Below, piece by piece: positions 19,485-50,920 of a stretch of DNA of 64,000 bases. Within the stretch, counting starts at the first letter, position 1. The number at the start of each line of letters is the position of its first letter. The DNA lies in assembly GCA_041660565.1 (NCBI GenBank), contig JBAZWC010000001.1, positions 302,481 to 366,480 of the forward strand. Direction: 5' to 3'. The position numbers and the translations under genes are program-made. The notes under the pieces are model-generated. The model had not been told where the DNA came from, did no database searches, and was given only the letters and a program-made list of their open reading frames with translations. This stretch comes from Patescibacteria group bacterium. Lineage in GTDB: Bacteria; Patescibacteriota; UBA1384; CAJBMM01.

Positions 19485-20111
19485 TTAATTGGAATCTTTT
19501 TTAAGATAAGTACCCAGCATTGCCAGGAAGGTGGTTAAAACCAATCCAATCACAACCGCTAAGGTAATATCTAGTGCCCAAAACGGCTGCACTTTAACAC
19601 TCACCGGGCCGGAAGCACGTAAAACATACTTTTCGTCAGTTTTGGCGGCATTAGTCTCGTCGGTTAAGCCTTGCAAAACCGTGTTGGCAGAGTTGAGCAA
19701 CTTTTCGGATTGAACCGAATCGGTTGATCGCAGGGTGATGTCCACAGTGGCTGGCTGAAACTGTTTAACCGTAAATAATTTGCCTAATTGAGTTGATGAG
19801 CGTAAATCTGGCAAATCAACATCGGCGTTGGCATAAATACTCTTAACAACGCTTGGTGAAATCATCCAGTTACCAACAGTTTGTGCAAACAAACCACCAG
19901 CTTGCTGAGCGTAATATCCATCATACAGATAGTATGGGGTGGTTTTTTGATCAATGATTGAAACACGGTCAATGGTTAGAGTTAACGAGGTGTCGTATCT
20001 GGTTTTTCCGGTAGCAATGAATAGCGCGGTTATAAGCACCACAAGCAGTGTACCAAAGATGATTAATTTCTTGGCGCGACCAAATATTTTGATGTAATCT
20101 ATTAGTTCCAT
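19485..20111 (-). CDS. Wzz/YveK-like polysaccharide chain-length determinant-type membrane protein (N- and C-terminal TM); start trimmed to MELIDYIKIF
   Basis: Wzz N-terminal pattern, 2 TM; ORF-track N-terminal extension is encoded by the terminator element; RBS AAAGGAT before chosen ATG. Confidence 0.45.
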   Translation of the reverse strand: MELIDYIKIFGRAKKLIIFGTLLVVLITALFIATGKTRYDTSLTLTIDRVSIIDQKTTPYYLYDGYYAQQAGGLFAQTVGNWMISPSVVKSIYANADVDLPDLRSSTQLGKLFTVKQFQPATVDITLRSTDSVQSEKLLNSANTVLQGLTDETNAAKTDEKYVLRASGPVSVKVQPFWALDITLAVVIGLVLTTFLAMLGTYLKKDSN

Positions 20112-20172
20112 TTTTATCCTTTCGTAAGTTAAATACTCTATTTCATTTATACCATCATCGCGCCACAATAGC

Positions 20173-20209
20173 AAAAGGAAACCGCCCGGGTGGCGAACCA
20201 CCAAGGCGG
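20173..20209 (-). terminator. conserved cassette terminator ggaaaccgcccgggtggcgaaccaccaaggcgg + T-run (copy 1)
   Basis: Imperfect hairpin followed by tttcctttt on minus strand; identical copy at 20617-20655. Confidence 0.55.
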
Positions 20210-21100: not shown

Positions 21101-21231
21101 TGTCATCCCCGCCCCGCTAAGCGGGGCAAAGGAACGCTTAGCGTCCCGACGTCCGTAATCCGTTTGCAGACGATGGCCTCCGGCTCTACGAGCCGATAGG
21201 CTCGGAGAGAGGACACTATTCGGGGATCCAG
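21101..21231. repeat. double-hairpin element (GTCATCCCCGCCCCGCTAAGCGGGGC...ATTCGGGGATCCAG) with a ~55-bp internal insertion that is itself a hairpin (cctccggctctacgagccgataggctcggagagagg)
   Basis: Compare 8657-8725. Confidence 0.65.
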
Positions 21232-24477: not shown

Positions 24478-24590
24478 TCAAAATTCTAAATTCTAAGCAC
24501 TAGATTCTAAACAAATTCAAATGTTTTGAATTTAGTGCTTCTGATTTGTTTCGAATTTCGGATATAGTGCTTCGTGCTTACCAGTTATGG
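24478..24590. repeat. repeat cluster of GAATTTAGTGCTT / TTCTAAGCAC units
   Basis: Related copies at 34113-34155, 49410-49500 and in-frame inside glyA at 55305-55425. Confidence 0.55.
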
Positions 24591-24833
24591 CCATAACTGG
24601 TTGCCGTCTTTATCTTTAACGATAATGGCGTCGGTAGGACAACTTTGTGCCGCTTGAATGATAGTGTCTAGATCTTCGCCGTTTGCATCAATAATGATTG
24701 CTTTTTGCTCATCATCTAGTTCAAAAACCGCACCGGCGATAGTGACGCAACTGGCTGCACCAATACAAGCTTCGCGATCAATTTCGACCGTTACACCATC
24801 GGTTCTAGAAATTGGTTTGTTATTATTACTCAT
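24585..24833 (-). CDS. fdx: 4Fe-4S ferredoxin
   Basis: Cys clusters CIGAASC and CPTDA, 82 aa. Confidence 0.6.
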   Translation of the reverse strand: MSNNNKPISRTDGVTVEIDREACIGAASCVTIAGAVFELDDEQKAIIIDANGEDLDTIIQAAQSCPTDAIIVKDKDGNQLWP

Positions 24834-24866
24834 GTGGAAATTATATCATATTTTCTTAAATGCCAA

Positions 24867-26000
24867 TCAATCCAATTTGAGAATAGATTTAATTGACTCG
24901 GCAACTTTCTTGATCTCGTCTGACGTGTTAAACCGCCCCAAGCTAAACCGAATGCACGTAAAAGCATCTTGATAAGATATACCCATCGCCAGCAAAACAT
25001 GCGATGGATCGGTGGACGTGGCGCTACACGCCGAGCCGGCCGAAACGCAAATCCTACGTTGGTCTAGAGCATGAATTAGGTTTTGGGCATCGACGTCAGC
25101 AAATTTGATATTTAGAATATGAGGCACGTGGTTGCTTTCTGAGCCCACAACTAAAGTATTCGGCATTTTTAGCAGCTGGTCTTTTAATTGGTCATGTAAA
25201 CCGGAAATGCACTTAGACTCAGTTTGACAGTTTGCCTGGGCAATTTCGAGCGCCTTGGCCAATCCCACAATGCCGGCGACGTTTTCGGTGCCACCTCTGC
25301 GATGGTTTTCTTGCCCGCCACCGGTCATTACCGGACTAAAATCAACCTCATTCTTTACATAAAGCAATCCAACCCCTTTGGGACCGTAAATTTTTGATCC
25401 GTTTAGCGTAAGCAAGTCCACGCCTAGTTTCTTGACATCAAGATTTAGATAACCAGCCGCTTGACAAGCATCGGTATGAAAAATAGCGCCGGATTGATGC
25501 GATATCGTAGCGAGATCAGTAATCGGCTGCACCGACCCAACTTCGTTATTGGCATACATTACCGAGACAAATTTAGTCTTATCGCTTATCGTGTTCACTA
25601 ACGTAGACACTTCCACTATTCCCTCGGCTGTTGCCGGCAAGTATTTGACCGTAAATCCGCGTTTAAGTAAATTTTCGGCAGTCGACAGAACAGCCGGATG
25701 TTCAATTTGTGACACGATCAGCTCGCTACGTTTCGATTCGTCCGACATTACTCCTACCAGCGCTAAATAATCGCTTTCGGTACCTCCGGAGGTAAAAATG
25801 ATCTCATCTGGCGAGCAATTAAGTATTTTGGCGCATTTATCGCGTGCTGATTCCACCGCCTCGCGAGCTTCGGATCCAAGTTGGTGCATACTCGAAGCGT
25901 TGCCATACTGATTTGTCAGATACGGCATCATTTCGGCTAAAACACGGTCGTCGATCTTAGTTGTCGCCGCGTTATCTAAATAAATTATTGGATTTTTCAT
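24867..26000 (-). CDS. cysteine desulfurase (NifS/IscS-like, class V aminotransferase); C-terminus ...KLD* encoded by ATTGGA repeat
   Basis: PLP-dependent fold, SSMHQLG..., active-site Cys region SAGSACS; start set at MKNPIIYLD. Confidence 0.85.
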   Translation of the reverse strand: MKNPIIYLDNAATTKIDDRVLAEMMPYLTNQYGNASSMHQLGSEAREAVESARDKCAKILNCSPDEIIFTSGGTESDYLALVGVMSDESKRSELIVSQIEHPAVLSTAENLLKRGFTVKYLPATAEGIVEVSTLVNTISDKTKFVSVMYANNEVGSVQPITDLATISHQSGAIFHTDACQAAGYLNLDVKKLGVDLLTLNGSKIYGPKGVGLLYVKNEVDFSPVMTGGGQENHRRGGTENVAGIVGLAKALEIAQANCQTESKCISGLHDQLKDQLLKMPNTLVVGSESNHVPHILNIKFADVDAQNLIHALDQRRICVSAGSACSATSTDPSHVLLAMGISYQDAFTCIRFSLGRFNTSDEIKKVAESIKSILKLD

Positions 26001-26045
26001 ATTTAAATTAAAACACAAATAACCACAATTTGCAATCAAAGCTAC

Positions 26046-26081
26046 AAAAAAGAACTAGGGCGTTTCTTGCAAGAAACGCCC
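26046..26081 (-). terminator. terminator hairpin gggcgtttcttgcaagaaacgccc + T-run
   Basis: Perfect 11-bp stem; tagttctttttt on minus strand. Confidence 0.6.
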
Positions 26082-26126
26082 TACGTTGGCACAGAGCCAT
26101 CAGTCACAACCACTACGCGATCATCC

Positions 26127-26576
26127 CTAGGCGCAGTTTGTCGAAACAGACAACCAGCCGTGCATCTGGCCGGCTAGTTGACGGAAGAACTTCCGACATC
26201 TTTCGACGTCTACCCGCTGCGCTGTCCCGTTGGCGAGAGTATTCAGAGTCTCCTGAAACTGGATGAACAGGCGCGCGAAATCGTCGGGGGTATTCACCCC
26301 AAAGTCGTCCGGATGGGCGTTAACTACTCCCAGCGCACACCCACAGGCATCAAGCATCTCCACGGTTGGCGCGAACTTGGCGCCGGGATCAACGAACATC
26401 GAGTGCGCTTGCACGACATTCACAATCATCGCTCGCGCTTGGTTTACCGCCCCCTGCTGATCGGGAGATACTTGGCCGCTATTGAGGTATTGACCCAATG
26501 CACCAGAGGCCTTTGACGACATGAAGCCGTAGCGAAACGCTGTCGAACGGTCAAGGCTCATCATTGCGCTAGCCAT
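26127..26576 (-). CDS. hypothetical protein (MASAMMSLDRST...), mid/high-GC single-gene insert
   Basis: RBS GGGGGT-5nt-ATG; own promoter and terminator. Confidence 0.4.
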   Translation of the reverse strand: MASAMMSLDRSTAFRYGFMSSKASGALGQYLNSGQVSPDQQGAVNQARAMIVNVVQAHSMFVDPGAKFAPTVEMLDACGCALGVVNAHPDDFGVNTPDDFARLFIQFQETLNTLANGTAQRVDVERCRKFFRQLAGQMHGWLSVSTNCA

Positions 26577-26660
26577 CTTGGACCCCCAGTCGTAGCAACG
26601 TCGTCCCACACGCCCAGTGCGGCACGACTCTACCTTTGTAATGGTACTCCCCTTGACATC

Positions 26661-26688
26661 ATATTAGTTCATAGACAATCATTGTCAA
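26661..26688 (-). promoter_or_regulatory. promoter TTGACA-16-TAATAT, flanked by inverted repeat CTTGACA..23 bp..TGTCAAG (possible operator)
   Basis: Read on minus strand upstream of 26127..26576. Confidence 0.5.
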
Positions 26689-26695
26689 GCATTTA

Positions 26696-28759
26696 TTACG
26701 GCAATCGGGTTAGCCGGCGGCGGATTAGCCAACCAACGACTGAGATTATGATTAACGTAGCTCCACCACCGATTGACAAGTTGGTCGGGGTAAGTAGTTT
26801 CTGGGCTTGAGTTTTAGTTTCAGTTGGAACTACAACAGGAGCTTCTTTAAATGACGCGGTAACAGCCGTGGATGGGTTTGAAGTGTTATTGTGATTATCT
26901 GTAGCTTGTAGAGTAAACTGGTAGTCTGTGGCTAGTTTGAGTTTAGCATGATCTGCCAGTGTTAAATTGTAGCTAGTAACGGATTTCTCTAACTTTACCG
27001 TCTCTATGTTTGCACCCGACGCATCGTTAATATTCAAAATATATCCAGATAAATCGGCATCGATATCTGCAGTCCAAGATAGTTTAATGATAGATTTTGA
27101 GTAACTGGTAACAGCTAGGTTAACCGGAATACCCGGAGCTAGGTTATCTACTGAAGCAAAACTAACCGTATTAGAGCTTTTTGATTCAGAGGTACCTTTG
27201 TATGCTCTAACAAAGTAATAAAATGTAGTACCAACATCTGCTTTAGTATCGATATACTGTAATACTGTTTTTTCAGTTTTAGCTACGTTTACAAAATCTT
27301 TGGTTTGATCTGTAGTACTACGGTAAACCATATAACCGTTAATAGTAGATGAGGTAGATGCCTTCCACTTTAGAGTAGTATTTCCGCCTTGATCTCCGGG
27401 GAAATCTTCTGCAGTTAAACTAGATGGTACATTAATAAATGATACCGGAGTAGCTGGAGCAGCACCGGTACCAGCAGATACCCCAACTTGAGGTGCTGGG
27501 GTGTTGGCTACTACAACTTGAGGCGCGGCAGTTGCGCTTGTACCCGTGTTACTAGTACCGGTATTACCGGTGTTATTATTTCCGGTATTGCTACTGGCGG
27601 CTGTACTTGGAGTTGGAGTAGGGGTTGGGGTAGAATCACTGCCAACCACCGCATTCACCGTTAGAGTTGCTTCGTTGGAGGTAGCATTGCCGTAAGCGTT
27701 AGTAACTACGCATTTATATTTACTACCACTATCCGAGGTAGATAAAACACCGGTAGTATATGACGAGCTAGTTGCCCCCGAAACGTTGGCACTATTTTTT
27801 TGCCACTGATATGACAACGGCGCCGTGCCCGACGCAGAAACTGAAAATGTAGCGGTTTGCCCAGCGGTTACAGTTACACTAGATGGATGAGATGAAATAG
27901 ATGGCGCGGTACCTTGCGCAGGAGCATTAACTGAAAAAGCTACATAGACGTCTGAATACGCTACTCTGGAGTTATTAGACGTTCTCTCCAATCTCCCACG
28001 CAATATATGTGAGCCGTTAGCCACACCGGTGATTTGGTATGATCCATTTAATGTGGAATCGGTATATTCGGTACCGCTATCTATACTATAATGAGCATGA
28101 TATGTTGGAGCCATTTTAGTGGAAGTATAGCTTATTGTGACCGTACTAGAGGTTAGAGTCTGGCCACTGGTTGGAGAAGTGATGGTAAAAGGCGTCACCT
28201 GATACATACTAACCGCACCACTGTTTACCGCCAATTCTTCCGGGACTTCAAACAAAACACTACCACTACTAGCGTTCACGACTTTTGCTTTAGCGGTTCC
28301 ATTTGCCCCATACGCAGTCAGCTCAGTAATTAACTTTGCTGTAACATGAACGCTCCCGTGATATTTGTCAACGTAATCAAAAGCATTACTAGTAGCCACG
28401 CAATGATCATATTGACTGCCGCTAATGGTAACTTTACTAAAAACAATTGACTCCACGCTTGCCATAGCATTGGCTACGATACTCAAATTTCGATCCAATA
28501 TGTCAATTCTTACGTCTCCCGAAAAAGATGTGGGAGTAGCCGGATCGGCATAAGTATGCTGAGAAACCACTACGTCGTATGCAGTGGAAATATTATTGCC
28601 GTCTGTGGTGCCATCGTTGCTACAATATGTGTAAGTATCAGCCATCACCTTGGTACTTTTTGATAAAATCATCCCGGCAATCGATAAAACTAAAACAAAT
28701 CCTAAAAGCACCAGCGATGTCATAGATCGTGAAAAATATTTTTTATGCATTTGTACCAC
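26696..28759 (-). CDS. secreted surface protein with Ig-like (I-set) and two fibronectin type III domains, TPTPTP/N-G-T-rich linker, C-terminal TM anchor
   Basis: Signal/TM N-terminus; Ig motif YQWQKN...KYKCVVTNAYGNATSNEATLTV; FN3-like W..Y..Y repeats; C-terminal hydrophobic helix + RRRLTRLP. Confidence 0.65.
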   Translation of the reverse strand: MVQMHKKYFSRSMTSLVLLGFVLVLSIAGMILSKSTKVMADTYTYCSNDGTTDGNNISTAYDVVVSQHTYADPATPTSFSGDVRIDILDRNLSIVANAMASVESIVFSKVTISGSQYDHCVATSNAFDYVDKYHGSVHVTAKLITELTAYGANGTAKAKVVNASSGSVLFEVPEELAVNSGAVSMYQVTPFTITSPTSGQTLTSSTVTISYTSTKMAPTYHAHYSIDSGTEYTDSTLNGSYQITGVANGSHILRGRLERTSNNSRVAYSDVYVAFSVNAPAQGTAPSISSHPSSVTVTAGQTATFSVSASGTAPLSYQWQKNSANVSGATSSSYTTGVLSTSDSGSKYKCVVTNAYGNATSNEATLTVNAVVGSDSTPTPTPTPSTAASSNTGNNNTGNTGTSNTGTSATAAPQVVVANTPAPQVGVSAGTGAAPATPVSFINVPSSLTAEDFPGDQGGNTTLKWKASTSSTINGYMVYRSTTDQTKDFVNVAKTEKTVLQYIDTKADVGTTFYYFVRAYKGTSESKSSNTVSFASVDNLAPGIPVNLAVTSYSKSIIKLSWTADIDADLSGYILNINDASGANIETVKLEKSVTSYNLTLADHAKLKLATDYQFTLQATDNHNNTSNPSTAVTASFKEAPVVVPTETKTQAQKLLTPTNLSIGGGATLIIISVVGWLIRRRLTRLP

Positions 28760-28793
28760 CTACTAAAATAAGTGTACATCAACCCCCAAAATT

Positions 28794-29111
28794 TTACCAA
28801 ATCCCCAGCAGATCTTTGACCTCTTGACTGGCCATTATTGAAGGATCCCAAATTGGGTCAAAAACCACCACTACTTCCACGTTAGAATAGTTATTTTTGT
28901 TTAGTTGATCTTTCACTTCTTGAATTAGGCTAGATGCGTACGGGCAAAACGGCGTGGTAAGGGTCATGGTGATTTTAACGTGGCGATCTGTCACTTCGGC
29001 ACCATAAATTAGTCCCAAATCTACAATGTTGATGTTTAGTTCGGGATCAACAACTTTTGAAAGCATCGTATTAATTTTAGGATCTATTTTCATCCTCGTC
29101 ATCCCTGCCAA
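28794..29111 (-). CDS. sufT: SufT/DUF59 (MIP18-like) Fe-S assembly protein
   Basis: DUF59 pattern ...VDLGLIY...TTPFCP; suf operon context. Confidence 0.65.
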   Translation of the reverse strand: MAGMTRMKIDPKINTMLSKVVDPELNINIVDLGLIYGAEVTDRHVKITMTLTTPFCPYASSLIQEVKDQLNKNNYSNVEVVVVFDPIWDPSIMASQEVKDLLGIW

Positions 29112-29525
29112 TCAAGCCAATTTATCCAATTTTGATATACAATCTGACAACCCCTGCCAAGGCAACCAAGCGCACCCATGGCGATTTGGGAACTGAGCTA
29201 CGCCACTTAAACTAATCAAACTGTCTGGCGGATTAGACCCCTTTAAGACTTGGTCGACATCAGAAATTAGCTTTTGAGTTTCGTTTCGACTTTTGCCATT
29301 AACCTCACGACACATTAGCGATGCCGAAGCTTGGCAAATTAGACATCCGTCAACTTGGCATGACACCTTTAATTTACCCAAAGCGACCTTAGCCTGAAGC
29401 TTAATTTTATCACCGCAGCTAAGGTGCGACCGCTCAATTTCAACATCCGGATTTTTTATTCGATCCGCGCCGGTTGGAAACTGGGCTAAATCTAGTAATT
29501 CTTGTTGATAGATATCATTTGACAT
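29112..29525 (-). CDS. sufU: SufU/IscU-like Fe-S scaffold/sulfur acceptor; C-terminus KLDKLA* encoded by ATTGGA repeat
   Basis: Three Cys motifs SCGDKI, GCLICQAS, HGCAWL. Confidence 0.75.
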   Translation of the reverse strand: MSNDIYQQELLDLAQFPTGADRIKNPDVEIERSHLSCGDKIKLQAKVALGKLKVSCQVDGCLICQASASLMCREVNGKSRNETQKLISDVDQVLKGSNPPDSLISLSGVAQFPNRHGCAWLPWQGLSDCISKLDKLA

Positions 29526-30747
29526 ACAATTTATCCACCGCAGTTTTAACCGCAGCGATTAATTTATCCACATCAGACGAATCATTATATATCCCAAAAC
29601 TGGCTCTAACCGTACCCGGCAAACGCAGATGATCTGACAACGGCATGGCACAATGCTTTCCCGAACGCACTGTGATTTTGTTCTCATCCAAAACATGAGC
29701 TAAATCGTGAGGATGTACGTTCTTAATATTAAATGAGACAAGCGACAACTGGTTTTTGCCGTACACTTCCACTGCTGGAATTTCGGCCAGATTTGATATT
29801 AATTGATCTACCAAATCACGATCATGTTGTTGAATTTTATTCAAACCGATTTTATTGATGAACCGAATTGCTTCACCTAAACCAACCACCCCGGCAACAT
29901 CCACTGTGCCCGCTTCAAATCGATGTGGCAATTTTGTTAGCTCAAACCAATCAAACGTTACTTCAGAAATCATCCCACCGCCATAAATCAACGGAGACAT
30001 TTGCTCAAGTAGTTCTACGCGACCGTACAAGACGCCAATACCGGTTGGCCCATACATTTTATGCGCGCTGAACGCATAAAAATCGGCATCAAGTTTGGTC
30101 ACGTCAACCGGCATATGCCCAACCGCTTGCGCGCCGTCAACCACCACTTTTGCACCAAATTGGTGCGACATTTTAACGATTTGTTCAACTGGATTTTGGT
30201 GACCCAAAACATTTGAAACATGCCCCACAGCCACAATTTTGACTTTTTTAGATAGCTTTTTGGCTAAATCGTCCAAATCTATTTGACCGAATTGGTTAAG
30301 CTCGATTGCTACCAGCTCAGCGCCAGTTTGCTTTGCGATCACTTGCCAGGGCATCAAGTTAGCATGATGCACACCGCGGCTAACCAAAATAATATCACCT
30401 AGTTTTAATATATTTCTAGCAAAGCCAAACGCCACCAAATTTAGTGATTCGGTACAATTTTTGCTAAAAATAATCGATTTTGCGTCCCCTGCACCAATAA
30501 AATCTGCTACAATTTGACGATTATCAGCTAAAATTTGACTGGCAAGATTCCCAGCCGTAGAGACTCCGCGACCGGTATTGGCATTATTTTTTTGATAATA
30601 TGCGTCCATTTTCGCTAAAACCGACTTGGGCTTCTGCGATGTGGCTGCCGAATCTAAATAAGCGCTAGATGGATTAGATTTGAAATAGGGGAATTGTTTT
30701 TTCATTTTGGTCACTTTCTTAAAATAGTTCTCACTCCGTTCGAACAA
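29515..30747 (-). CDS. sufS: cysteine desulfurase SufS (group II); true start may be MKKQFPYFK at 30705
   Basis: PLP Lys region SAHKMYGPTGIGVLY, C-terminal RSGKHCA active Cys. Confidence 0.85.
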   Translation of the reverse strand: MFERSENYFKKVTKMKKQFPYFKSNPSSAYLDSAATSQKPKSVLAKMDAYYQKNNANTGRGVSTAGNLASQILADNRQIVADFIGAGDAKSIIFSKNCTESLNLVAFGFARNILKLGDIILVSRGVHHANLMPWQVIAKQTGAELVAIELNQFGQIDLDDLAKKLSKKVKIVAVGHVSNVLGHQNPVEQIVKMSHQFGAKVVVDGAQAVGHMPVDVTKLDADFYAFSAHKMYGPTGIGVLYGRVELLEQMSPLIYGGGMISEVTFDWFELTKLPHRFEAGTVDVAGVVGLGEAIRFINKIGLNKIQQHDRDLVDQLISNLAEIPAVEVYGKNQLSLVSFNIKNVHPHDLAHVLDENKITVRSGKHCAMPLSDHLRLPGTVRASFGIYNDSSDVDKLIAAVKTAVDKLYVK

Positions 30748-30772
30748 AAAATGATATTTCTTGTTCGAGGAT

Positions 30773-31474
30773 CTAGGCGTCCGAGAACTGTGTTTGACTA
30801 ACTTGATTAATAATTTTACTCACTCTGTTTCTACTTCTATTGTTGGCAAACATCTCGGCGGCGGAATACAATCCACCTAAAATTAACTCGCGCCTAGCTT
30901 GGTCCAGCGTTAGCCCCCGACATAATAAATAATTTATTTGATCTTGATTTAGCGGCCCGGTGGTAGCACCGTGCGTGCATTTTACATCATTGGTCAAAAT
31001 CTGTAAAAACGGTTTTGACGCGGCCTTTGCCCCTGGCGATAGCAGTAAATTGCTATTTTTTTGGTATGCTACGCTTTGTTGCCCATTCGCTGTTATTTCG
31101 ATTAGACCATCAAATTCGGAAGCGCTTTGATCTGACAACACCGACCGATATTCCAAATTTGATGTAGTAAGCGGGCTTTGGTGAATCTGGCGTGTTTTAA
31201 TAGATAGCACGTCTCCATTTTGTCCAATCCCGATAATTCGCACATCGGCCGTGGCATTTTGACCCGCCATCACCACTTCAAGATTGATTGAGCAATTAGT
31301 GATAATCCACAACTTGAAACCGGCGCTTTCTTCGACAACAAAAGACATATCGACCGACTCTGGCTGGCTCGAAAATCGCGATTCGATAACCGAAATCTGT
31401 TGCGACTTTTTAACCACCGCCTGATTCAGCATTGCACTTTTTCGCTTTCCATTTATATAACAACGGTTATCCAA
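30773..31474 (-). CDS. sufD: SufD-like protein, short (233 aa, C-terminal beta-helix part only)
   Basis: SufBD family C-terminal similarity; 8-nt overlap with sufB stop. Confidence 0.55.
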
Positions 31475-32846
31475 CTGAGCCCTCCATTTCCAAATCGATT
31501 AACCGGTTTAACTCAATGGCGTATTCAAACGGCAATTCTTTGGTAAACTGGCTAATAAATCCGTTGACGATCAGAGACGCGGCCGCACTTTCTGACAATC
31601 CTCGACTAGTTAGATAGAAAAGTTGAGCGTCACCAATCTTGCTCACCGACGCTTCGTGCTCCACAAACGCCGTTGGTTCGGCAACCTTGATGGTGGGGTA
31701 CGTATCTGATCGTGATCGATCGTCTAACAGCAATGCATCGCATCGAACTCGGTTCTTAACTCCGCTATACCCCCTACCAACGTTTACCGTCCCGCGAAAG
31801 CTGGTCCGGCCGCCATCTTTTGAAATCGATTTGGAAATTATTGTTGATGAGGTGTTGTTTGCCAAATGGATTGCCTTGGCGCCGGCATCTTGGTACTGAT
31901 CTTTGCCTGCATACGCAATGGACAAAATATCACCTTTTGCCCCGTTACCTAACAAATACACGCTCGGATATTTCATCGTTAACCGCGAGCCCAAATTGCC
32001 ATCCACCCACTCTACAAACGCATTTTCATACACAAATGCCCGTTTTGTCACCAAGTTGTAGATGTTTTTGGACCAATTCTGCACTGTGGTATAGCGAATA
32101 TGTGAACCGGGCAACGCGATTAGTTCCACCACCGCGGCGTGAAGCGAATACGTGGAATATACCGGCGCGGTGCACCCTTCTATATAATGAACATCACTTC
32201 CTTCATCTGCGATGATTAACGTGCGCTCAAACTGGCCAAAGCTTTCCGCGTTAATGCGAAAATATGCCTGCAACGGCAAGCGCACTTTGGTATTTTTAGG
32301 CACGTAGATAAAACTGCCTCCCGACCACACCGCCGAATTTAGGGCGGAAAATTTGTTGTCATTTGCCGGAACAACAGACGCAAAATATTTTTTGACGATT
32401 TCGGGATATTCTCTTAAACCCGTGTCCATATCGCAAAAGATCACTCCCTGGTCATCTAACTCTTTTTTGATGTGATGATAAACCACTTCGGATTCAAATT
32501 GCGCCGATACGCCGGCCAGAAATTGGCGTTCCGCTTGCGGAATACCAATTTTATCAAATGTTTGCTTGATATCGTCTGGAACATCGTCCCAACTGTTTTG
32601 CGGCTTGTCAGATGTGGACAAATAATAGGTGATTTGGTCAAAATTAATCTCGTCAATTAGTTTACTTTGTGCCCAAATTGGGAGTTTTTTGGCTAAAAAT
32701 TGAGTGTAAGATTTAAGCCGAAAATCTAGCATCCATTTTGGCTCATTTTTGCGACGCGAAATAGCCTTAACCGTTTCGGCGGTAAGTCCTTTTGGTGTTT
32801 GGTATTTAACTGCGCTTTTCATGGTTCCCTTGTCATTCCGGGTCAA
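31467..32846 (-). CDS. sufB: Fe-S cluster assembly protein SufB
   Basis: Strong SufB signature throughout (…[20 protein letters not shown]…). Confidence 0.9.
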
Positions 32847-32887
32847 TTGGCTTAATTGGATTGATTGGACTAATTGGAAAATTTAAA

Positions 32888-33616
32888 TTATTTATTAATT
32901 TCACTAAACCCAGTGCTATTTACCTTCTGCGATAAATCCGCACCACCGATTCTGACAATCGCTCCGTCTTGCATTACCAACACCCGATCAACTTTGACTA
33001 AATCTAGCAAGCGTTGGTAGTGGGTAATTATAATAATTGCTCGATCAGGTGCACGGTATTGGTTAATAACGTCGGCAACCAGATGAAGTGCATCTACGTC
33101 TAACCCGGAGTCAATTTCGTCTAAGATCAATAATTTTGGCTGCAATACCAATGCTTGCGCCAATTCCAACCGCTTTTTCTCGCCTCCAGACATCCCGTCG
33201 TTTACCGCACGATTAGCGTAGCTTTGATCTAAACCAACCGAGTTAAGCGCCGAAATTAAATTTGACCGAAAACTGGCGGCAGTTACTTTAAGATGAGGAT
33301 GATTTTTAACCGCGGCCCGCAGCATTGAAGCCACGGTTAGCCCCGGAATTTCTATGGGATGTTGCGATGCCACATATATCCCCAGTGCAGATCGTTTGTC
33401 TGCACTTAATTTGGTGAGGTCTTTATGATTAAAAATAATTCGCCCAGCAGAACAGTCGTAATTTGGCGAGCCCATAATGGAAGATACCAGCGTGCTTTTG
33501 CCTGAACCGTTTGGCCCCATTATCGCCACCACTTCGCCTGCTTCAATTTCAAGCGACAGATTCTCAATAATTTTTTTATCACTGGCGTTTACAGATAAAT
33601 TATTTATTTTTAGCAT
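32888..33616 (-). CDS. sufC: Fe-S cluster assembly ATPase SufC
   Basis: Walker A GPNGSGKST, ABC signature, Walker B LLILDE. Confidence 0.9.
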   Translation of the reverse strand: MLKINNLSVNASDKKIIENLSLEIEAGEVVAIMGPNGSGKSTLVSSIMGSPNYDCSAGRIIFNHKDLTKLSADKRSALGIYVASQHPIEIPGLTVASMLRAAVKNHPHLKVTAASFRSNLISALNSVGLDQSYANRAVNDGMSGGEKKRLELAQALVLQPKLLILDEIDSGLDVDALHLVADVINQYRAPDRAIIIITHYQRLLDLVKVDRVLVMQDGAIVRIGGADLSQKVNSTGFSEINK

Positions 33617-33640
33617 TATTCAACTTTCCAATTCATCCAA

Positions 33641-34018
33641 TCAATCCAATTTATCCAATTTGATTGAATGTAATTTTTCAATAATTTCCGCGTTTATTTT
33701 TCTCACTTGAGGAGATGTCTGACACCCTTTATTTTGACAACTGGCGCAATCGGTCAACGCAATCGGCCCATCAACGGCGGTGATTATTTGGGCAAAACTG
33801 ATGGTTTTTGGATCAACTGCCACCCAATATCCCCCTCCCACACCTTCTTTACTCGAAATCAATCCAGCCTGACGCAATTTGTTAGCTAATTGTCGCAATA
33901 TTGATAACGGCAAGTTCGCTTCCCCTGCCACCACATTTAAGCTAATTGGATGGCTAGAATTTGATAATTTAGACATCAGCACCAGCGCATAATCTTGTTT
34001 TTTGGAGAGTTTCAACAT
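33641..34018 (-). CDS. Rrf2 family transcriptional regulator (IscR/SufR-like); C-terminus KLDKLD* encoded by ATTGGA repeat
   Basis: Rrf2 wHTH N-terminus MLKLSKKQDYALVLM..., C-terminal Cys triad. Confidence 0.75.
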   Translation of the reverse strand: MLKLSKKQDYALVLMSKLSNSSHPISLNVVAGEANLPLSILRQLANKLRQAGLISSKEGVGGGYWVAVDPKTISFAQIITAVDGPIALTDCASCQNKGCQTSPQVRKINAEIIEKLHSIKLDKLD

Positions 34019-34194
34019 ATCTAATACCTATTTGTATCTAGTTTTACAGATGTAATAGACGCTTGTCAAATTGGTCTGATTGGATTAATTGGAGCAATTG
34101 GATTGATTGGATTTGAATTTGTTTCGTATTTCGAATTTTGTGCTTAGTGCTTTGTTGACTTGCGCCAACTCGATCCTTAATTCATACTGATATT

Positions 34195-34617
34195 ATGTGG
34201 CAGTGCAAACATTGTAGAGAACGCTTTGTGGAAAAGCCCGAACATCACCTGTGCGTAACCGACGAGTTAAGCGGGTATTTCCGAGGGCGGCGCACCTTAC
34301 TGCAACCGCTATTTCAAAATATGCTCGCTAAGCTAAATCGCTTTAACGGCATTACGGTGCAACCGTTTGATCAGCTTATTGCGATAAAATCCAGCCAGCC
34401 GTTTGCATATGTACATATTGGTGATGGTAGCATCGACGTTTTCGTAGATCTTCCACAAGACAAGCCGATATCACCCAACCTTAAATCAGCAAATCGGTTG
34501 CAGGTGGGAAAAACCAGCCATTATTTTACAATTAAATCTGTTGCCGATTTAACCCCAGACATAATGCACGCCTTAATGTGGGCAAAGGAAAAAGTGGATT
34601 ATCAGCAAAATGAATAA
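34195..34617 (+). CDS. hypothetical protein with N-terminal Cys/His cluster (CxxC...HHLC)
   Basis: ORF only; first gene of a 5-gene plus-strand cluster. Confidence 0.35.
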   Translation: MWQCKHCRERFVEKPEHHLCVTDELSGYFRGRRTLLQPLFQNMLAKLNRFNGITVQPFDQLIAIKSSQPFAYVHIGDGSIDVFVDLPQDKPISPNLKSANRLQVGKTSHYFTIKSVADLTPDIMHALMWAKEKVDYQQNE

Positions 34618-35581
34618 CTATCTACTCGATTATTTTAAGAATTACAAAAAATCGCCGGAGTTTAAGCGGCTGCATAGCCAACTGCGTACTCAGCAAGCGC
34701 AAGTTCAGCAGACTTTTCACCATACCCACAAACATGCCAAAAAATTATTACGTAAACATCGCATTGTGCTTGGACATTTACGCCACGGTAGCACCAAGGC
34801 TTTTGCCGGCGCTGCGCTGGCCAGTAGTTTGTTTGTTGCGCCTATTCATACTCAGACCATACATACAGACAAGGCACAAGCCAAAATCCCCGAGGTGTCT
34901 CAAACATCATTGGTTCCCGGCCCAACTAATCCAAATGTTCACCAAATGACCCAAGATGAATTTAAGGATGCTCTACAGCGCATTATTGGCACTTCGTTAG
35001 CACGAGAGGGCAAACTTACAGACAGTCAGCTTAGCCAAATTGAAACGTTAATCCAACAACAATTTAATCTAGAAATCAGTAATAAAACCGCCTCCGGGTT
35101 TGAACTGAAAGATCATTATGGATATATGGGTGCCGAGCAGCATCTACCAACCAAACCGGGTGACACTGCCTCGAATCACGTTAACTCGCGAGACCCGCTT
35201 GCCATTTTAACCGGAATTACCCCAGGGCGCGGAGCATGGGGATACGCACCCGCCGGTCCCGAAGAACTTAATTACTTTGTGGCACAAACATGGCTTTCAG
35301 ATCAGTTTGGCACCGCCGCATCCAAAAACCTGGCTGGGCAACGCTATCTGGTTATTCAGGCTCCGAACGCCCGCAATGGCAACCGAGTTAGCGTTCAAGT
35401 TACAGACATCAGAGACGCCGGCCCCGGAATTAGCACTCGAAAAGTATTTGGCGGCTCCCCAGAAGTAATGGATGCACTTGGTAGCGCCATTTCTGGCGGT
35501 CCACGCAACGATCAAGTCATTGCCCTGCCAATTTTAACCGACGTTCCTTCAAATCAATTAGGACCAAGGAGTTTCAAATGA
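34610..35581 (+). CDS. membrane-anchored protein with C-terminal RlpA-like double-psi beta-barrel (DPBB) domain
   Basis: Basic N-term + TM; C-terminal ...NARNGNRVSVQVTDIRDAGPG...EVMDALG resembles RlpA motif NGxSVVVRxNDRGP...DLSxAAxxLG. Confidence 0.4.
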   Translation: MNNYLLDYFKNYKKSPEFKRLHSQLRTQQAQVQQTFHHTHKHAKKLLRKHRIVLGHLRHGSTKAFAGAALASSLFVAPIHTQTIHTDKAQAKIPEVSQTSLVPGPTNPNVHQMTQDEFKDALQRIIGTSLAREGKLTDSQLSQIETLIQQQFNLEISNKTASGFELKDHYGYMGAEQHLPTKPGDTASNHVNSRDPLAILTGITPGRGAWGYAPAGPEELNYFVAQTWLSDQFGTAASKNLAGQRYLVIQAPNARNGNRVSVQVTDIRDAGPGISTRKVFGGSPEVMDALGSAISGGPRNDQVIALPILTDVPSNQLGPRSFK

Positions 35582-35922
35582 GCCAACTATTTTACGCCCA
35601 TCTGGTACCATTAGATGAAGCGTTACATCTTTTAGATCAGTATGAGCTTGAAAGTGATGAACGCGATCAACTAGAAGAAATGGTTTACGCCATTTTTGAC
35701 CACAACATTATGAATTTGATCATGCAAAAGGTGCCTAAAGAACATCATGATAATTTGGTAGAGATGATTGCTGTTTCCCCCTTTGATCTTGCCATCATTG
35801 ATTATCTGAAAACTCACGCTCCCGACATTGAAACTGATATAATGGATGTGGGCAAACAAGTTCATTATCAGTTAATCCCGGTTTTAGCGAAGCCGGCGAA
35901 CAAAGATGGAGGTAAAAAGTGA
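35578..35922 (+). CDS. acidic hypothetical protein
   Basis: ORF with 4-nt overlaps to neighbours (operon). Confidence 0.35.
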   Translation: MSQLFYAHLVPLDEALHLLDQYELESDERDQLEEMVYAIFDHNIMNLIMQKVPKEHHDNLVEMIAVSPFDLAIIDYLKTHAPDIETDIMDVGKQVHYQLIPVLAKPANKDGGKK

Positions 35923-36161
35923 TATTAGTTGATGAGTTTGACTGCTCGGAGTGCGGAAAATCAATTGATATTGGCGAACCATTCGTTGCCTCTGCCACCT
36001 ACCCAGCGCGATCAGCATTTCAGTCCGATGCAGTTGGTTTAGGTTACCTATCTAATAACGGCGAGGTGTTGTGCGGTAATTGTGCTAAAAAAAGGTTTGG
36101 AGAGGAAGATTTGGCAAAATTCAAAGGCACTACATTCCATTTCCCAAAACACAAAAAATAA
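35919..36161 (+). CDS. small zinc-ribbon protein (CSEC...CGNC)
   Basis: Two CxxC pairs; operon overlap. Confidence 0.35.
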   Translation: MILVDEFDCSECGKSIDIGEPFVASATYPARSAFQSDAVGLGYLSNNGEVLCGNCAKKRFGEEDLAKFKGTTFHFPKHKK

Positions 36162-36173
36162 TTAACTTCAGAT

Positions 36174-36236
36174 TGTCATTTCGACTCGGGGAGAGTGTCA
36201 ACTCGACCACAGTGGAGAAACCTCAAGAAAGAATCC
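36174..36236. repeat. half copy of MITE-like element (TGTCATTTCGAC...GGAGAAAC..AGAATCC)
   Basis: Aligns to left half of 22372-22497. Confidence 0.6.
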
Positions 36237-36878
36237 ATTCCAGTGAAACACATAAATAATAGCTATTTTGTGGTAATTACTTTATTTGTTCTCGCCGTTG
36301 CGGCCGTAATTGCCATAGTCCTAACGTCAGATCATCAGCAGTCTGCCGAAGCCACTATTTGGCGAGTTGATGCCCCGACAAAAGGCAAAACAAGCGCCAA
36401 AGTTAAGATGGTGGAATTTGGCGATTTTGCTTGCGTCGCCTGCGCCGATTTCAGGGCGATAAAAAACGCCCTGCTAGAACAATATCCAAACGACCTACAA
36501 TATCAATTTCGCTTTTTCCCCACCGCTAATCATCCCAATTCGTACTCGGCGGCGGTAACCGCCGAAATTGCCAACCAGCACGACCAATTTTGGGTAATGT
36601 CTGACCTCTTATACGAAAACCATGCAAACTGGCAAGATTCAACCAACTTTCGCAGCATTTTTGCCAACTTTGCAGTGTTAGTGGGAATTGATCAGAGTAC
36701 ATTTACCAGTGATTTTGACAAACTAAAAACAGCTGACGATGTGGTAGATAAAGACGTGGCAGACGGCAATGCACTGTCGATTACCGAAACGCCGGCTATT
36801 TTTCTAAATGACACCCGTTACGGCGGCACCTTAACTCAGACCGATTTGGCCAAAGCAATAGATTCTCTATTAAAATAG
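36195..36878 (+). CDS. DsbA-like thiol:disulfide oxidoreductase, membrane-anchored (CVAC active site); annotated N-terminus lies in the repeat, true start probably GTG near 36223
   Basis: Thioredoxin-fold CxxC FGDFACVACADF after a TM helix. Confidence 0.65.
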   Translation: MSTRPQWRNLKKESIPVKHINNSYFVVITLFVLAVAAVIAIVLTSDHQQSAEATIWRVDAPTKGKTSAKVKMVEFGDFACVACADFRAIKNALLEQYPNDLQYQFRFFPTANHPNSYSAAVTAEIANQHDQFWVMSDLLYENHANWQDSTNFRSIFANFAVLVGIDQSTFTSDFDKLKTADDVVDKDVADGNALSITETPAIFLNDTRYGGTLTQTDLAKAIDSLLK

Positions 36879-36909
36879 TCTTTTTCTAACTCCAATTGGA
36901 TAAATTGGA

Positions 36910-37284
36910 CTAATTGGAATGATTGGATTCTTTTATTGTGACCGATGGTTCGGAACTATAAACCGGCGCCACCGGGCTTGAAAAATGTCCATGATTTACG
37001 TTAGCTGATGTTGAAACCGGAATATCCAGTGCAAACGCCAGCGAATTTGCCGTAGCCACACCTATTCGGGTACCGGTGAAAGACCCGGGGCCGGGATTAA
37101 CCACAATTGCATTTAGATTAGACAGTACAATTTTATTTTGTTTTAACAATTGATCAATTTTTGGCAACAGCTCCGACCCTAAATTACGCCCGGATTCCCA
37201 CGCAATTTGGTCAACTACTTGCTTGTCGATTATGATTTCGAGTTTAGTTGTTTCAGTTGTAGTGTCTATTGATAATATTTTCAT
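36910..37284 (-). CDS. tsaB: TsaB (YeaZ)-like protein, N-terminal domain only (124 aa)
   Basis: SIDTTTE...NPGPGSFTGTRIGVA motif. Confidence 0.6.
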   Translation of the reverse strand: MKILSIDTTTETTKLEIIIDKQVVDQIAWESGRNLGSELLPKIDQLLKQNKIVLSNLNAIVVNPGPGSFTGTRIGVATANSLAFALDIPVSTSANVNHGHFSSPVAPVYSSEPSVTIKESNHSN

Positions 37285-37294: not shown

Positions 37295-37372
37295 TGTCAT
37301 CCCGGGCTCGACCCGGGATCCAGACTATAAAAGACTTTATTATATAGATTCCGTGTCAAGCACGGAATGACA
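37295..37372. repeat. hairpin pair TGTCATCCCGGGCTCGACCCGGGATCCAGACTATAAAAG + ATTCCGTGTCAAGCACGGAATGACA; second hairpin encodes the last 9 codons and stop of tsaE
   Basis: Family of 9419-9490; tsaE ends ...CHSVLDTESI* inside hairpin. Confidence 0.65.
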
Positions 37373-39482: not shown

Positions 39483-39540
39483 ATTATAATTGTAGAGCTA
39501 TTCAATTTTTCAGACAAGTGCCTGAGTCGCCATGAATTTT

Positions 39541-39610
39541 AAATTTTAAAGGCAAAATTTTAAATGAATAAGTACCGAATGATTAAATTTTATAAAAGTT
39601 CCTTATTTAG
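39541..39610. repeat. ~65-bp repeat, inverted copy of 54776-54838 (ctaaataaggaac..aaatttaatcattcggtact.attcatt..)
   Basis: Near-identical in reverse complement. Confidence 0.6.
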
Positions 39611-39662
39611 TCATTTAAAATTAGCAACCATTCATTTGAAATTGAAAATTGAAAATTGAAAA

Positions 39663-40685
39663 TTAAATTATAAGCATGCAATCGCCAAAAGAGAGAAAAC
39701 GATAATTTGATTTTTGGGCGTGATCGTATAAATCAAATAACTTAGTTCGCCCCGTAAGCGCCGAAACCAACATCAGCAGCGTAGATTTTGGCTGATGAAA
39801 GTTAGTCAATAAGCAATCGACCACTTTGAACCGATAGCCCGGGGTAATAAACAAATTTGTCTCCCCAAAATACGGCTGATTTCCGGCTGATTCAAGCGCC
39901 CTGGCCACAGTGGTCCCAACTGCCACCACCCTGCCCCCATTGGCTTTTGTCTGATGTATGAGGTCAATTACCGCCTGAGACACCTCTACCGCCTCTGAGT
40001 GCATTACGTGATCGTTCGTATTTTCCACCCTCACCGGCAAAAACGTGCCCAGCCCAACATGCAAAATCACTTCCGCGGTTTTAACTCCGCCTTGCTTCAG
40101 CTTCTCCAATAACTCCGGTGAAAAGTGCAAACTGGCGGTAGGTGCGGCCACGCTACCCAATATTTTGGCGGTAATGGGTTGATATAACTCGTCTTCAAAA
40201 CCGGCTAGTTGCGGGTTGTGAATGTAAGGTGGCAGAGGCAGGTGACCAAATTCTTCGCAAAACAGGATGAAATCGGGGGATGATAAATTGGTTTGAATAA
40301 TAAACCGCCCCATCCCATCGGTTAATTTATTAATTATTTCACAATGAACATCATCAAATCTTATCTTTTCTCCAATCTCGATGTTTTTCCCCCTAAGTAA
40401 ACACTCAAATTGTCCATCTTTACTCAGTGATTTTAAAATTAACGCTTCGATTTCTTTGCCGTCACTCTGGCGAACTCCCATCAACCGCGCGTGCCTCACT
40501 TTCGAGACGTTAAAGACAAGCAAATCTCCTGAGCGAATAAACGAGGGCAAATCTGCCACCGTTCTATCTAAAATTCGATCTGCTTCTCTGCTATACACCA
40601 GCATTTTTGCTCGCTCACGCGGTCGCACCGGTGCTTGAGCAATTTTATTCTCGGGCAAATTATAATCAAACAGGTCAACTTTCAT
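39663..40685 (-). CDS. queA: S-adenosylmethionine:tRNA ribosyltransferase-isomerase QueA
   Basis: QueA family similarity across length (…LPLPPYI…). Confidence 0.85.
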   Translation of the reverse strand: MKVDLFDYNLPENKIAQAPVRPRERAKMLVYSREADRILDRTVADLPSFIRSGDLLVFNVSKVRHARLMGVRQSDGKEIEALILKSLSKDGQFECLLRGKNIEIGEKIRFDDVHCEIINKLTDGMGRFIIQTNLSSPDFILFCEEFGHLPLPPYIHNPQLAGFEDELYQPITAKILGSVAAPTASLHFSPELLEKLKQGGVKTAEVILHVGLGTFLPVRVENTNDHVMHSEAVEVSQAVIDLIHQTKANGGRVVAVGTTVARALESAGNQPYFGETNLFITPGYRFKVVDCLLTNFHQPKSTLLMLVSALTGRTKLFDLYDHAQKSNYRFLSFGDCMLII

Positions 40686-41395: not shown

Positions 41396-41486
41396 GACAA
41401 TTCAATATATCACACTCGGAATAACAAAAAAACGCCTTCCGCGCTGTTTAAAAATTTAAAATTTAAAATTTAAAATTTTGGAGATG

Positions 41487-41703: not shown

Positions 41704-41824
41704 GTCATTCCCGCGAAGGCGGGAATCCAGCCTATAATAAAATTCATATTTTTCTGGATCCCCGAATATAATGTCGGGACGCTTAGCGCCCCTAAGTCCC
41801 GCTTAGCGGGACGGGGATGACAAA
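41704..41824. repeat. composite repeat: GTCATTCCCGCGAAGGCGGGAATCCAGCCTATAAT + reverse copy of double-hairpin element
   Basis: Matches 9475-9490 and revcomp of 8657-8725. Confidence 0.65.
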
Positions 41825-42298: not shown

Positions 42299-42652
42299 TT
42301 GAGGATCACGGAGGTTGTGCTGTACCCGACGATGCCTTGCCGTCGCCTGGCATCGTTGAAGTTTGGCCCGTTATCCGATCTGACCGAAGCTGTCTGCCTG
42401 GCGCAGATCTTCACCAGAAGGCATGGCAATGGCGACTTCCTGCCAGATGGACAGATAGGCGTCCAGAACGGGTTCCAGATTCTGCCGTACGAGTCAATAA
42501 ATCGTGCCTGCTCAGTGGTCATATACTCAACAAATGACACCTGTAGGAAACAGTGCAAGGCACTTATCAGCGGCCTTCGAACATCAGGCATTGTCAAAAC
42601 GCCAACCGTCCGCAACGAGATCGAGATCAACAACCCACCATACTGGGCTTAA
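42299..42652 (+). CDS. hypothetical protein, GC-rich, paralog 2 (TTG start; …YPTMPC…LAQIFTRRHG…QNGF…)
   Basis: RBS GGAGGG-6nt-TTG; paralogy on plus-strand frame. Confidence 0.4.
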   Translation: MRITEVVLYPTMPCRRLASLKFGPLSDLTEAVCLAQIFTRRHGNGDFLPDGQIGVQNGFQILPYESINRACSVVIYSTNDTCRKQCKALISGLRTSGIVKTPTVRNEIEINNPPYWA

Positions 42653-50919: not shown

Positions 50920-50920
50920 G

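Follow-up and report, generated by a model that had tools for sequence, protein, structure and literature searches.

We analysed a 64,000-nucleotide stretch of the genome of a Patescibacteria group bacterium (contig JBAZWC010000001.1; hereafter, this whole stretch is the window), in which runs of ATTGG-type tandem repeats lie at gene boundaries, including several junctions between suf genes. Judged from their sequences, these runs are dispersed copies of one non-coding repeat of ~40 bp. They are also the GG-core branch of a larger family of G-core nonamers, whose GGG-core branch (TTAGGG/TTGGG) forms inverted pairs in another part of the window. Where a gene ends inside a copy, the last codons and the stop codon are those of the repeat, and this is why unrelated proteins end in KLD or KLDKLD. 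We are highly confident of this descriptive part, that is, of the repeat family and of the origin of the tails and stops.

The ATTGG element and its reading frames

A sequence-only reading of this DNA had pointed out seven ATTGG-type runs. Direct reading of the seven sites showed that all of them carry the motif, with some extents corrected, and there is also an eighth, degenerate copy (Table 1). The spacing from one TTGG core to the next is exactly 9 bp in every ATTGG array. The pattern ATTGG-N4-ATTGG-N4-ATTGG has 10 matches in the window, versus 0.00 expected from 100 dinucleotide shuffles, and TTGG-N5-TTGG, counted on both strands, occurs 27 times versus 3.6 in simulations. Four of the ATTGG arrays are picked up by the program TRF.

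When the copies are aligned in the TTGG orientation, they have the left flank TCAA(A) in common, and their units follow a common order: TTGGATAAA, TTGGATTGA, TTGGAYNAA, TTGGAAA. The layout of the element is a fixed left end (TCAAA) and then about four degenerate 9-bp units, each of which is TTGG plus five bases (usually A-Y-N-R-A); core positions are invariant and spacer positions vary. Local identity between pairs of copies is 85-93% over 24-42 nt. For instance, array A3 (in the sufC-sufB spacer) and array A4 (at the Rrf2/sufC junction) are identical at 36 of 42 positions in inverted orientation. The shared left flank, the shared unit order, and this level of identity imply that whole arrays were copied and that they are not independent products of slippage. 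A simple repeat made by slippage has identical or near-identical units whose number varies between strains; here, units differ from each other at 2-4 of their 9 positions, and the sole second copy of the locus (contig L081) is 100% identical. The copies lack the hallmarks of miniature inverted-repeat transposable elements (MITEs), namely terminal inverted repeats and a target-site duplication: the left flank TCAA(A) is fixed, the right end is variable, and there is no flanking duplication.

In the sense orientation, two of the three frames of the element consensus contain stop codons. The AAA-TTG-GAT frame, read from the left boundary of the consensus, gives K-L-D-K-L-D-stop, with the TGA in the second unit; another frame has a TAA already in the first unit; and the remaining sense frame is open. 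All three genes that overlap a copy in the sense orientation (Rrf2, SufU, and a NifS-like desulfurase) use AAA-TTG-GAT, the frame that gives the earliest stop, and this single frame accounts for a KLD or KLDKLD tail in unrelated proteins. Both of the antisense overlaps in the window (TsaB and ORF 19485-20204; ORF is short for open reading frame) use the TCC-AAT frame, which gives SN(xSN). The C-terminal ends are as previously noted: HSIKLDKLD for Rrf2, CISKLDKLA for SufU, SILKLD for the NifS-like protein, and, from TCC AAT CAT TCC AAT TAG on the other strand, IKESNHSN for TsaB. The shared KLD and SN tails are therefore a by-product and not a functional peptide.

It had also been proposed that the run at the sufU/sufT junction provides the TTG start codon of sufT. 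There is a TTG directly after the TGA of sufU, but in-frame ATG codons lie 9 and 18 nt further on and are equally plausible as starts. The Pfam domain of SufT starts at residue 12 of the TTG-started ORF.

We considered whether UGA might be a sense codon in this organism. This was rejected, as Rrf2 and SufC would then form one in-frame fusion, and as ORFs under the standard code are of normal length.

Comparison of the tails with relatives

If the tails derive from the repeat, then relatives without the repeat should lack them. For TsaB, we obtained five syntenic relatives (45-51% identity), all of which share TsaE-TsaB; the closest ones retain the gene order QueA-hypothetical-TsaE-TsaB. Their proteins end in VTVRR, VTVRTD, VTMKKSFSQ and similar sequences, and none ends in ESNHSN. 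None of the five has an ATTGG array 3' of the gene or any such nonamer array in the 4.8-12.6 kb obtained for each. The relatives that lack the array also lack the tail, which supports a repeat-derived origin for ESNHSN. For SufU, the conserved domain ends with LPWQGLSDCI, and in (distant) alignments the homologues carry unrelated tails of 1-13 residues beyond it, so SKLDKLA is extra.

TsaB is the only one of these genes with usable relatives, and in it the tail is absent where the array is absent; the SufU tail lies past the conserved domain, but the tail of Rrf2 aligns with a native motif. The broader proposal, that the repeat overwrites gene 3' ends and contributes their stop codons, survives as far as the stops and tails are translations of the element; for Rrf2, overwriting is another matter, which we take up below.

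A larger family with inverted pairs

A period scan of the window identified 25 arrays with a period of 9, versus about 1 in shuffled sequence. The sequence-only reading was right that the repeat is real, but it was too narrow: it missed a larger nonamer family with inverted pairs. Between 42711 and 57108 there are eight composite elements (B1 to B8) in the form of inverted pairs. Each has a G-type arm (nonamers of TTAGGG, TTTGGG, or TTGGGGG), a conserved linker of ~25 nt (GGTTCYTTCCCTAATWGGTTC...), a C-type arm, and then a conserved right flank, CGTYTTTCCT, which is pyrimidine- or U-rich. Exactly four G-tracts are present in 14 of the 16 arms. B2 and B3 are near-identical direct copies on either side of a glycosyltransferase gene.

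A simple ORF map gives 61 ORFs in the window and a coding fraction of about 90%, which means that the elements occupy much of the spacer DNA and abut stop codons. Arrays are present in 13 of the 42 spacers of at least 20 nt. The stop codon lies within a repeat unit for 10 of the 61 ORFs, and five further stops are 4-16 nt from an array (for example, A6 starts 16 nt past the stop of a thioredoxin/DsbA-like gene on the + strand). The stops within units are TGA for NifS-like, SufU, and Rrf2; TAG or TAA in antisense copies for TsaB and ORF 19485; and the TAG of a (T)TAGGG unit for FtsH, the glycosyltransferase, L25, SHMT, and a 23S-IVP-like protein. In two of these proteins, L25 (which ends in DLGN) and the 23S-IVP-like protein (GWGH), one whole unit is read through before the stop. 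TAG accounts for 21 of the 61 stops in the window, so its use at arrays is not unusual in itself. On the 5' side of genes, the distance from the end of A4 to the ATG of sufC is 11 nt. Fe-S genes adjoin five of the eight ATTGG copies.

An Rfam search of the window returned three tRNAs only, with no match at the arrays. Scans for consensus terminators and promoters did not flag the arrays, and their counts in the suf region were near the shuffle expectation.

Three familiar kinds of site were considered for the arrays and rejected. The ATTGG arrays might have been operators of the adjacent Rrf2 regulator, but they are also found at TsaB, at SHMT, and at an unrelated ORF, and they are direct repeats with no palindrome; that the TTAGGG branch also clusters regionally, among unrelated genes, counts against this idea as well. 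DnaA boxes were considered, as TTATCCAAT resembles TTATCCACA, but the critical last two bases differ and the genes among which the arrays are scattered are unrelated. Integron attC sites follow cassette genes and have the consensus 5'-RYYYAAC ... GTTRRRY-3'. In the window, the order of the cores is reversed on both strands (GTTAGGG ... CCCTAAC), and the elements are flanked by housekeeping genes (L25, ThrRS, SHMT, and FtsH).

Related arrays on other contigs

We found ATTGG-type arrays of the same family on L111, an unrelated metagenome contig that resembles the candidate phyla radiation (CPR), at 2467-2498 and 3522-3570. There, an array lies at the junction of the genes for ribosomal proteins S5 and L15, which follow each other directly. 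The S5 stop is within CCAATTAG, and the protein ends in KSNSTN, which is the same antisense frame as in the window's two antisense overlaps. The L111 array and copies in the window even have the unit TTGGTCTGA and the flank GTCAAATTGG in common. Degenerate AATTGGTTN arrays, some of them inverted pairs, are present on other metagenome contigs, so the phenomenon is not unique to the source genome. Among the matches listed by the metagenome pattern scan, most are plain 9-bp repeats or collagen-like coding repeats, and only a subset of those listed is family-like (L111, L161, L165, L189, L191, L097, L106, and L156). A scan of viral contigs for TTAGGG-N3 arrays gave generic matches, with one clear inverted pair only (L293).

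Predicted folding

Canonical G-quadruplex motifs (G3+N1-7) are concentrated in the TTAGGG arms, which hold 15 of them, one per strand per element, versus 0.74 expected. We folded six of the eight pairs. Their predicted hairpins have energies of -31 to -52 kcal/mol, with z scores of -2.8 to -5.2 in four of the six. If quadruplexes are allowed in ViennaRNA, then the hairpin (-40 to -52 kcal/mol) still beats the quadruplex (-4 to -9 kcal/mol) in the full paired element. In the ATTGG branch, an RNA duplex between A4 and A3 is predicted at -45.8 kcal/mol (z = -8.5); it would require co-transcription around sufC.

What the arrays might do

Taken as a whole, the explanation that we lean towards joins the boundary repeat family and the origin of the tails and stops to an RNA-structure role and to local spread. 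Translation of an ORF whose 3' end meets an element continues for one or two units and terminates at a TGA, TAA, or TAG that belongs to the element. At gene boundaries, the arrays would most likely act as nucleic-acid structures. Copies of the G type would pair with those of the C type locally, as in the hairpins of the TTAGGG pairs, or at a distance, as A4 and A3 might around sufC; such pairing could affect the 3' ends, stability, or processing of transcripts, as with repetitive extragenic palindromic (REP) sequences and bacterial interspersed mosaic elements (BIMEs). New copies were probably copied from nearby ones. Our preferred reading is a REP/BIME-like boundary element that would act via pairing of G-type and C-type arms. 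Considered separately, the RNA-structure role is a tentative proposal, somewhat less likely than not. Several features point to constraint on the arrays: the cores are invariant and the spacers variable, the arms keep to a rule of four tracts, linker and flank are conserved, and the arrays are abundant in a streamlined genome. Also in favor of this explanation, other repeat families of the window enter ORFs in frame (in Obg and SHMT).

A number of observations weigh against this explanation. In the proteins, the IKLDKL of Rrf2 aligns with the ISLADM motif of its nearest homologues, I119 and L121 are invariant in this alignment, and the Pfam match extends to residue 124 of 125. The repeat-encoded residues of Rrf2 occupy the position of a native motif, so overwriting is not demonstrated for this gene. 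The suf genes have no close orthologues (the best identities are 41% for Rrf2, 51% for SufC, 41% for SufU, and 67% for SufB), and a search of genome contigs for SufB returned only matches of 63-67% identity, from unrelated phyla. Without close orthologues of these four proteins, insertion of an array cannot be distinguished from the loss of a stop codon that extended the gene into an adjoining array. There is also no strain polymorphism, as L081, the one other contig with the locus, is identical. As for structure, single ATTGG arrays are mostly without a significant local fold (z of +0.6 to -1.9, with -2.8 for A4) and no quadruplex is predicted for them, as they have only GG tracts and 7-nt loops; a structural role for them would depend on pairing at long range or between copies. 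A unit-by-unit comparison showed that the complementarity of the TTAGGG arms is imperfect, with about half of the mirrored units mismatched at the variable core base, which is a better fit to selection for G-tract number or for a binding site than to selection for a stem. Finally, the orientation of the paired elements is independent of the direction of the upstream gene (as at B7).

Alternatively, the repeats could be functionless, that is, selfish or neutral products of slippage and local recombination or gene conversion that are kept only where they do little harm (in spacers, and in the last few codons of genes in the frame with the soonest stop). We consider this unlikely but a serious contender. 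It fits the regional clustering (ATTGG arrays at 19-37 kb and TTAGGG arrays at 42-57 kb), the fact that neighbouring copies are most alike (B2 and B3 around one gene, A3 and A4 around sufC), and the restriction to tolerated frames. The arrays are lineage-specific: the contigs obtained for the syntenic relatives (4.8-20 kb around TsaB) have no such nonamer arrays. Several further repeat families are present in the genome, with in-frame insertions in Obg and SHMT among them. Yet a streamlined genome that is ~90% coding should shed useless DNA, and a third of its spacers carry arrays; the conserved cores, the four tracts in 14 of 16 arms, and the conserved linker and flank all imply constraint; and the window yielded no transposase, no terminal inverted repeats, and no target-site duplications. 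The arrays could instead be phased binding sites for a sequence-specific DNA- or RNA-binding protein, with one subunit for each TTGG or TTAGGG core and typically four of them, in the manner of ribbon-helix-helix operators (MetJ boxes or omega heptads) or the triplet arrays of TRAP and HutP; overlap with gene ends would be incidental. An invariant core of 4-6 nt with free spacers is what a recognition site usually looks like, the number of units is held near four, both direct arrays and inverted pairs are found, A5 lies in a divergent promoter spacer that is clear of all ORFs, and the imperfect complementarity of the arms speaks against pure selection on a stem. However, with a period of 9 bp, consecutive sites do not share a face of the DNA helix, two cores (TTGG and TTAGGG) would need to be recognized, the neighbouring genes are functionally unrelated and hence form no regulon, and the window yielded no candidate for the binding protein. 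We rate binding sites as a little less likely than functionless repeats.

A further reading is that the family exists to form G-quadruplexes. The four G-tracts of an arm would then fold, either in the sense strand once displaced or in RNA directly past the stop codon, and would pause or terminate transcription, with the ATTGG arrays as decayed or weak members. The 15 canonical motifs (versus 0.74 expected), the exactly four tracts in 14 of 16 arms, and the four-unit bias and near-stop placement that are shared with the GGGNATC repeats, which form quadruplexes in vitro (PMC4692102), are on its side. But the ATTGG arrays, with GG tracts and 7-nt loops, have no predicted quadruplex, the ViennaRNA hairpin is far more stable than the quadruplex in the full paired element, and loops of six nucleotides weaken quadruplexes in general. 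This reading is plausible for the TTAGGG branch only, and as an account of the whole family we think it less likely again than binding sites. Most improbable of all, in our judgement, is that the arrays are a lineage-specific punctuation system of a minimal genome, in which factor-read four-unit arrays, or hairpin/quadruplex switches, would show where coding units end, terminate or insulate transcription bidirectionally, and guide the processing of polycistronic RNA. The stop codons in the units would then have been selected, and these built-in stops would let gene and signal overlap; to give an example, double-strand cleavage at a 40-bp A4/A3 duplex would excise the sufC cistron.

Significance

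Patescibacteria have genomes that are among the smallest and most tightly packed of any bacteria. Even so, a third of the spacers in this window consist of arrays from one phased nonamer family, and one gene in six ends within a unit. If the arrays are functional, then they are a pointer to how organisms that cannot be cultured bound their transcription units; if they are selfish, then even streamlined genomes tolerate the spread of repeats into essential genes. For genome annotation, repeat-derived C-terminal tails (KLD... or SN...) should be expected, and these should not be mistaken for conserved motifs.

Other repeats and features of the window

Besides the nonamers, the window has several families of small palindromic, MITE-like repeats that begin with TGTCAT(T/C)CC (such as GTCATTCCCGCGAAGGCGGGAATCC and GTCATCCCCGCCCCGCTAAGCGGGGC). 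Many spacers contain them, and the giant gene described below has one copy within it. Similar hairpins are present in other CPR-like contigs (L111 at 3560-3650 and spacers of L305). In Obg (6457-7503), a composite GTCAT-type palindromic repeat (GTCATTCCGGACTTGATCCGGAATC...GAATCCCGCCTGCACGTGAATGAC) lies in frame at 7125-7191 on the - strand. It adds ~27 residues (SRPVIPDLIRNPDIKDIESRLHVNDAP) between conserved segments, and the Pfam match to Obg is split in two. Another repeat, TGTCATTTCGAC...GGAGAAATCT-A-AAAGAATC, is present eight times, and its copies often form inverted pairs. At 36175, a copy extends over the region of the GTG that is the predicted start of the DsbA-like ORF, which makes this start doubtful.

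SHMT (54884-56359) is 491 amino acids long, and its Pfam match is in three stretches. It has two in-frame insertions (55300-55375 and 55900-56040) that are partly low-complexity or heptamer repeats; one of them includes a perfect TTCAAAT x4, which is translated as FNSNFKFQISN. Spacers also contain AT-rich heptamer arrays of ~4-5 units, several of them perfect (AAATTGA, AAAATTT, and AATTAAA). In the syntenic relatives L305 and L306, the heptamer arrays are instead of the TTTGCAT/AAATGCA type.

Next to B7, a giant ORF (57116-64000, - strand) of over 2293 amino acids runs out of the window and encodes seven Laminin_G_3/concanavalin-like lectin domains. The cumulative GC skew has its minimum at ~57000-58000, adjoining B7 and the start of the giant gene, and rises after that. 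Near B1, at 42634-42700 (+ strand), there is a strong hairpin that resembles an intrinsic terminator, with 12 pairs and then TTTTTT; no ORF lies upstream of it. A small RNA may have its 3' end here; the hairpin has no Rfam match at the gathering threshold. At the other end of the window, positions 2000-6000 form an island of higher G+C content (0.49-0.53 versus about 0.43), with a Bro-N domain protein, three ORFs without a Pfam match, and GC-rich hairpins. This island may be foreign or mobile DNA.

Table 1. Repeat arrays, other repeats, and genes. Coordinates are those of the whole 64,000-nt window; the strand of an array is the strand that reads TTGG. Gene identities in the suf/NifS/TsaB region were confirmed by Pfam.
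Feature	Coordinates	Strand	Description
Eighth copy	19449-19490	+	degenerate ATTGG-type; TAA of ORF 19485-20204 (-) within CCAATTAATCC; protein ends in KKDSN
A1	24863-24880	-	2 units (TCAAA TTGGATTGA TTGGC), remainder of 24855-24900 non-repeat; last codons K-L-D + TGA of NifS-like desulfurase; ferredoxin ATG 29 nt downstream
A2	29108-29134	-	3 units; sufU/sufT junction; encodes K-L-D-K-L-A + TGA of SufU
A3	32846-32880	+	4 units; sufC-sufB spacer; antisense to operon (CCAAT in mRNA)
A4	33625-33663	-	4 units; Rrf2/sufC junction; encodes K-L-D-K-L-D + TGA of Rrf2
A5	34070-34113	+	5 units; divergent spacer between Rrf2 (-) and a DUF5655 gene (+); no ORF overlapped
A6	36895-36929	+	4 units; between convergent genes; opposite strand encodes S-N-H-S-N + TAG of TsaB
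A7	54846-54875	-	3 degenerate units (TTGGATTGA TGGGATTAA TTGGGAGAC); directly 5' of SHMT ATG at 54884
B1	42711-42795		TTAGGG-type pair, G-arm then C-arm; 8 nt 3' of LepA stop
B2	49651-49758		pair upstream of glycosyltransferase gene; about 55/60 nt match B3
B3	50915-51018		glycosyltransferase TAG in first unit (CCA TAG GGT); predicted hairpin -50.2 kcal/mol, z -5.2
B4	51607-51715		pair begins 4 nt past TAG of ORF 51089-51613
B5	52848-52944		L25 translated through first unit (D-L-G-N), TAG in second; predicted hairpin -40.4 kcal/mol, z -5.2
B6	56350-56452		between convergent genes; SHMT TAG in first G-arm unit; TAG of 23S-IVP-like (-) in C-arm
B7	57011-57108		9 nt 3' of stop of giant LamG-repeat protein gene (-)
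B8	47462-47556		FtsH TAG is first triplet of G-type arm, - strand
ferredoxin	24585-24833	-	Pfam
NifS-like	24867-26000	-	Pfam
DUF59/SufT-like	28794-29111	-	Pfam
sufU	29112-29525	-	Pfam
sufS	29515-30705	-	Pfam
sufD	30773-31432	-	Pfam
sufB	31467-32822	-	Pfam
sufC	32888-33616	-	Pfam
Rrf2	33641-34018	-	Pfam
thioredoxin/DsbA-like	36195-36878	+	Pfam
short TsaB	36910-37284	-	Pfam
TGTCAT(T/C)CC repeats	8658-8725, 9419-9495, 16210-16240, 21102-21165, 37296-37371, 41704-41821, 62266 (-)		
TGTCATTTCGAC repeat copies	17121, 17275(-), 22373, 22495(-), 24029, 24149(-), 36175, 40848		
AT-rich heptamer arrays	11318-11349, 24481-24511, 39535-39669, 41451-41478, 49412-49501, 54721-54752		

Comparison with known repeat systems

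Non-coding repeats that enter ORFs, and that can supply C-terminal residues or stop codons, are known in bacteria: Rickettsia palindromic elements and MITEs of the Correia and ERIC (enterobacterial repetitive intergenic consensus) types do so. These are single palindromic units with terminal inverted repeats. The arrays in the window likewise become parts of ORFs, but they are phased tandem nonamers. In the literature, we found no paper that links Patescibacteria to such repeats or to quadruplexes.

Closer in form are the short tandemly repeated repetitive (STRR)-type heptamers of Xanthomonas and Nostoc, GGGNATC and GGGGA(C/T)T, which have a bias towards four units (Rehm et al. 2015, PMC4692102). 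GGGNATC repeats lie within 50 bp of a stop codon and on the coding strand, with some overlapping the stop, and form quadruplexes in vitro (PMC4692102). Both systems consist of short tandem units with a G core in non-coding DNA, and neither is tied to insertion sequences. The intergenic bias, the location near or overlapping stops on the coding strand, and the preference for four units are all found in the window. The TTAGGG arms have the same quadruplex motif (four or more G3+ tracts, separated by loops of 1-7 nt), whereas the ATTGG arrays, with GG cores only, do not. In contrast to the identical 7-mers, the window's family has a 9-bp unit with a degenerate spacer, and it forms inverted pairs with a conserved linker in a Patescibacteria host.

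The TAACTGA direct repeats of marine Beggiatoaceae, cyanobacteria, and Bacteroidetes (MacGregor 2015, PMC4679880) are similar in that stop-bearing tandem units lie at gene boundaries, where in-frame stops limit the overlap with coding sequence to a few codons (PMC4679880), and in that they adjoin essential genes of unrelated function. They are identical 7-mers, mostly just upstream of start codons and without inverted pairs, while the window's arrays are tied mainly to stops.

REP sequences and BIMEs are known from Enterobacteria and Pseudomonas (Nunvar et al. 2010, PMC2817692). A REP is an imperfect palindrome with a conserved tetranucleotide and is mobilised by a REP-associated tyrosine transposase (RAYT). 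REP/BIME elements, like the window's arrays, are many-copy extragenic repeats of ~35-40 bp at the 3' ends of genes and between the cistrons of operons (PMC2817692). The BIMEs' pairs of alternating orientation with conserved linkers have their counterpart in the eight TTAGGG-branch pairs; in the ATTGG branch, such alternation is at long range only (A4/A3, 36/42 identity). Unlike a REP, a single array is not palindromic, has an internal 9-bp periodicity, and in most cases folds no better than shuffled sequence. Among the Pfam-annotated ORFs of the window, there is no RAYT-like gene (IS200/IS605-like tyrosine transposase) or other mobility gene.

In summary, the array family belongs to a known kind of bacterial repeat, of which it is a local variant, and is not a new mechanism. 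It differs from the known systems in its degenerate 9-bp unit, its two core types, its inverted pairs with a conserved linker, and its Patescibacteria host.

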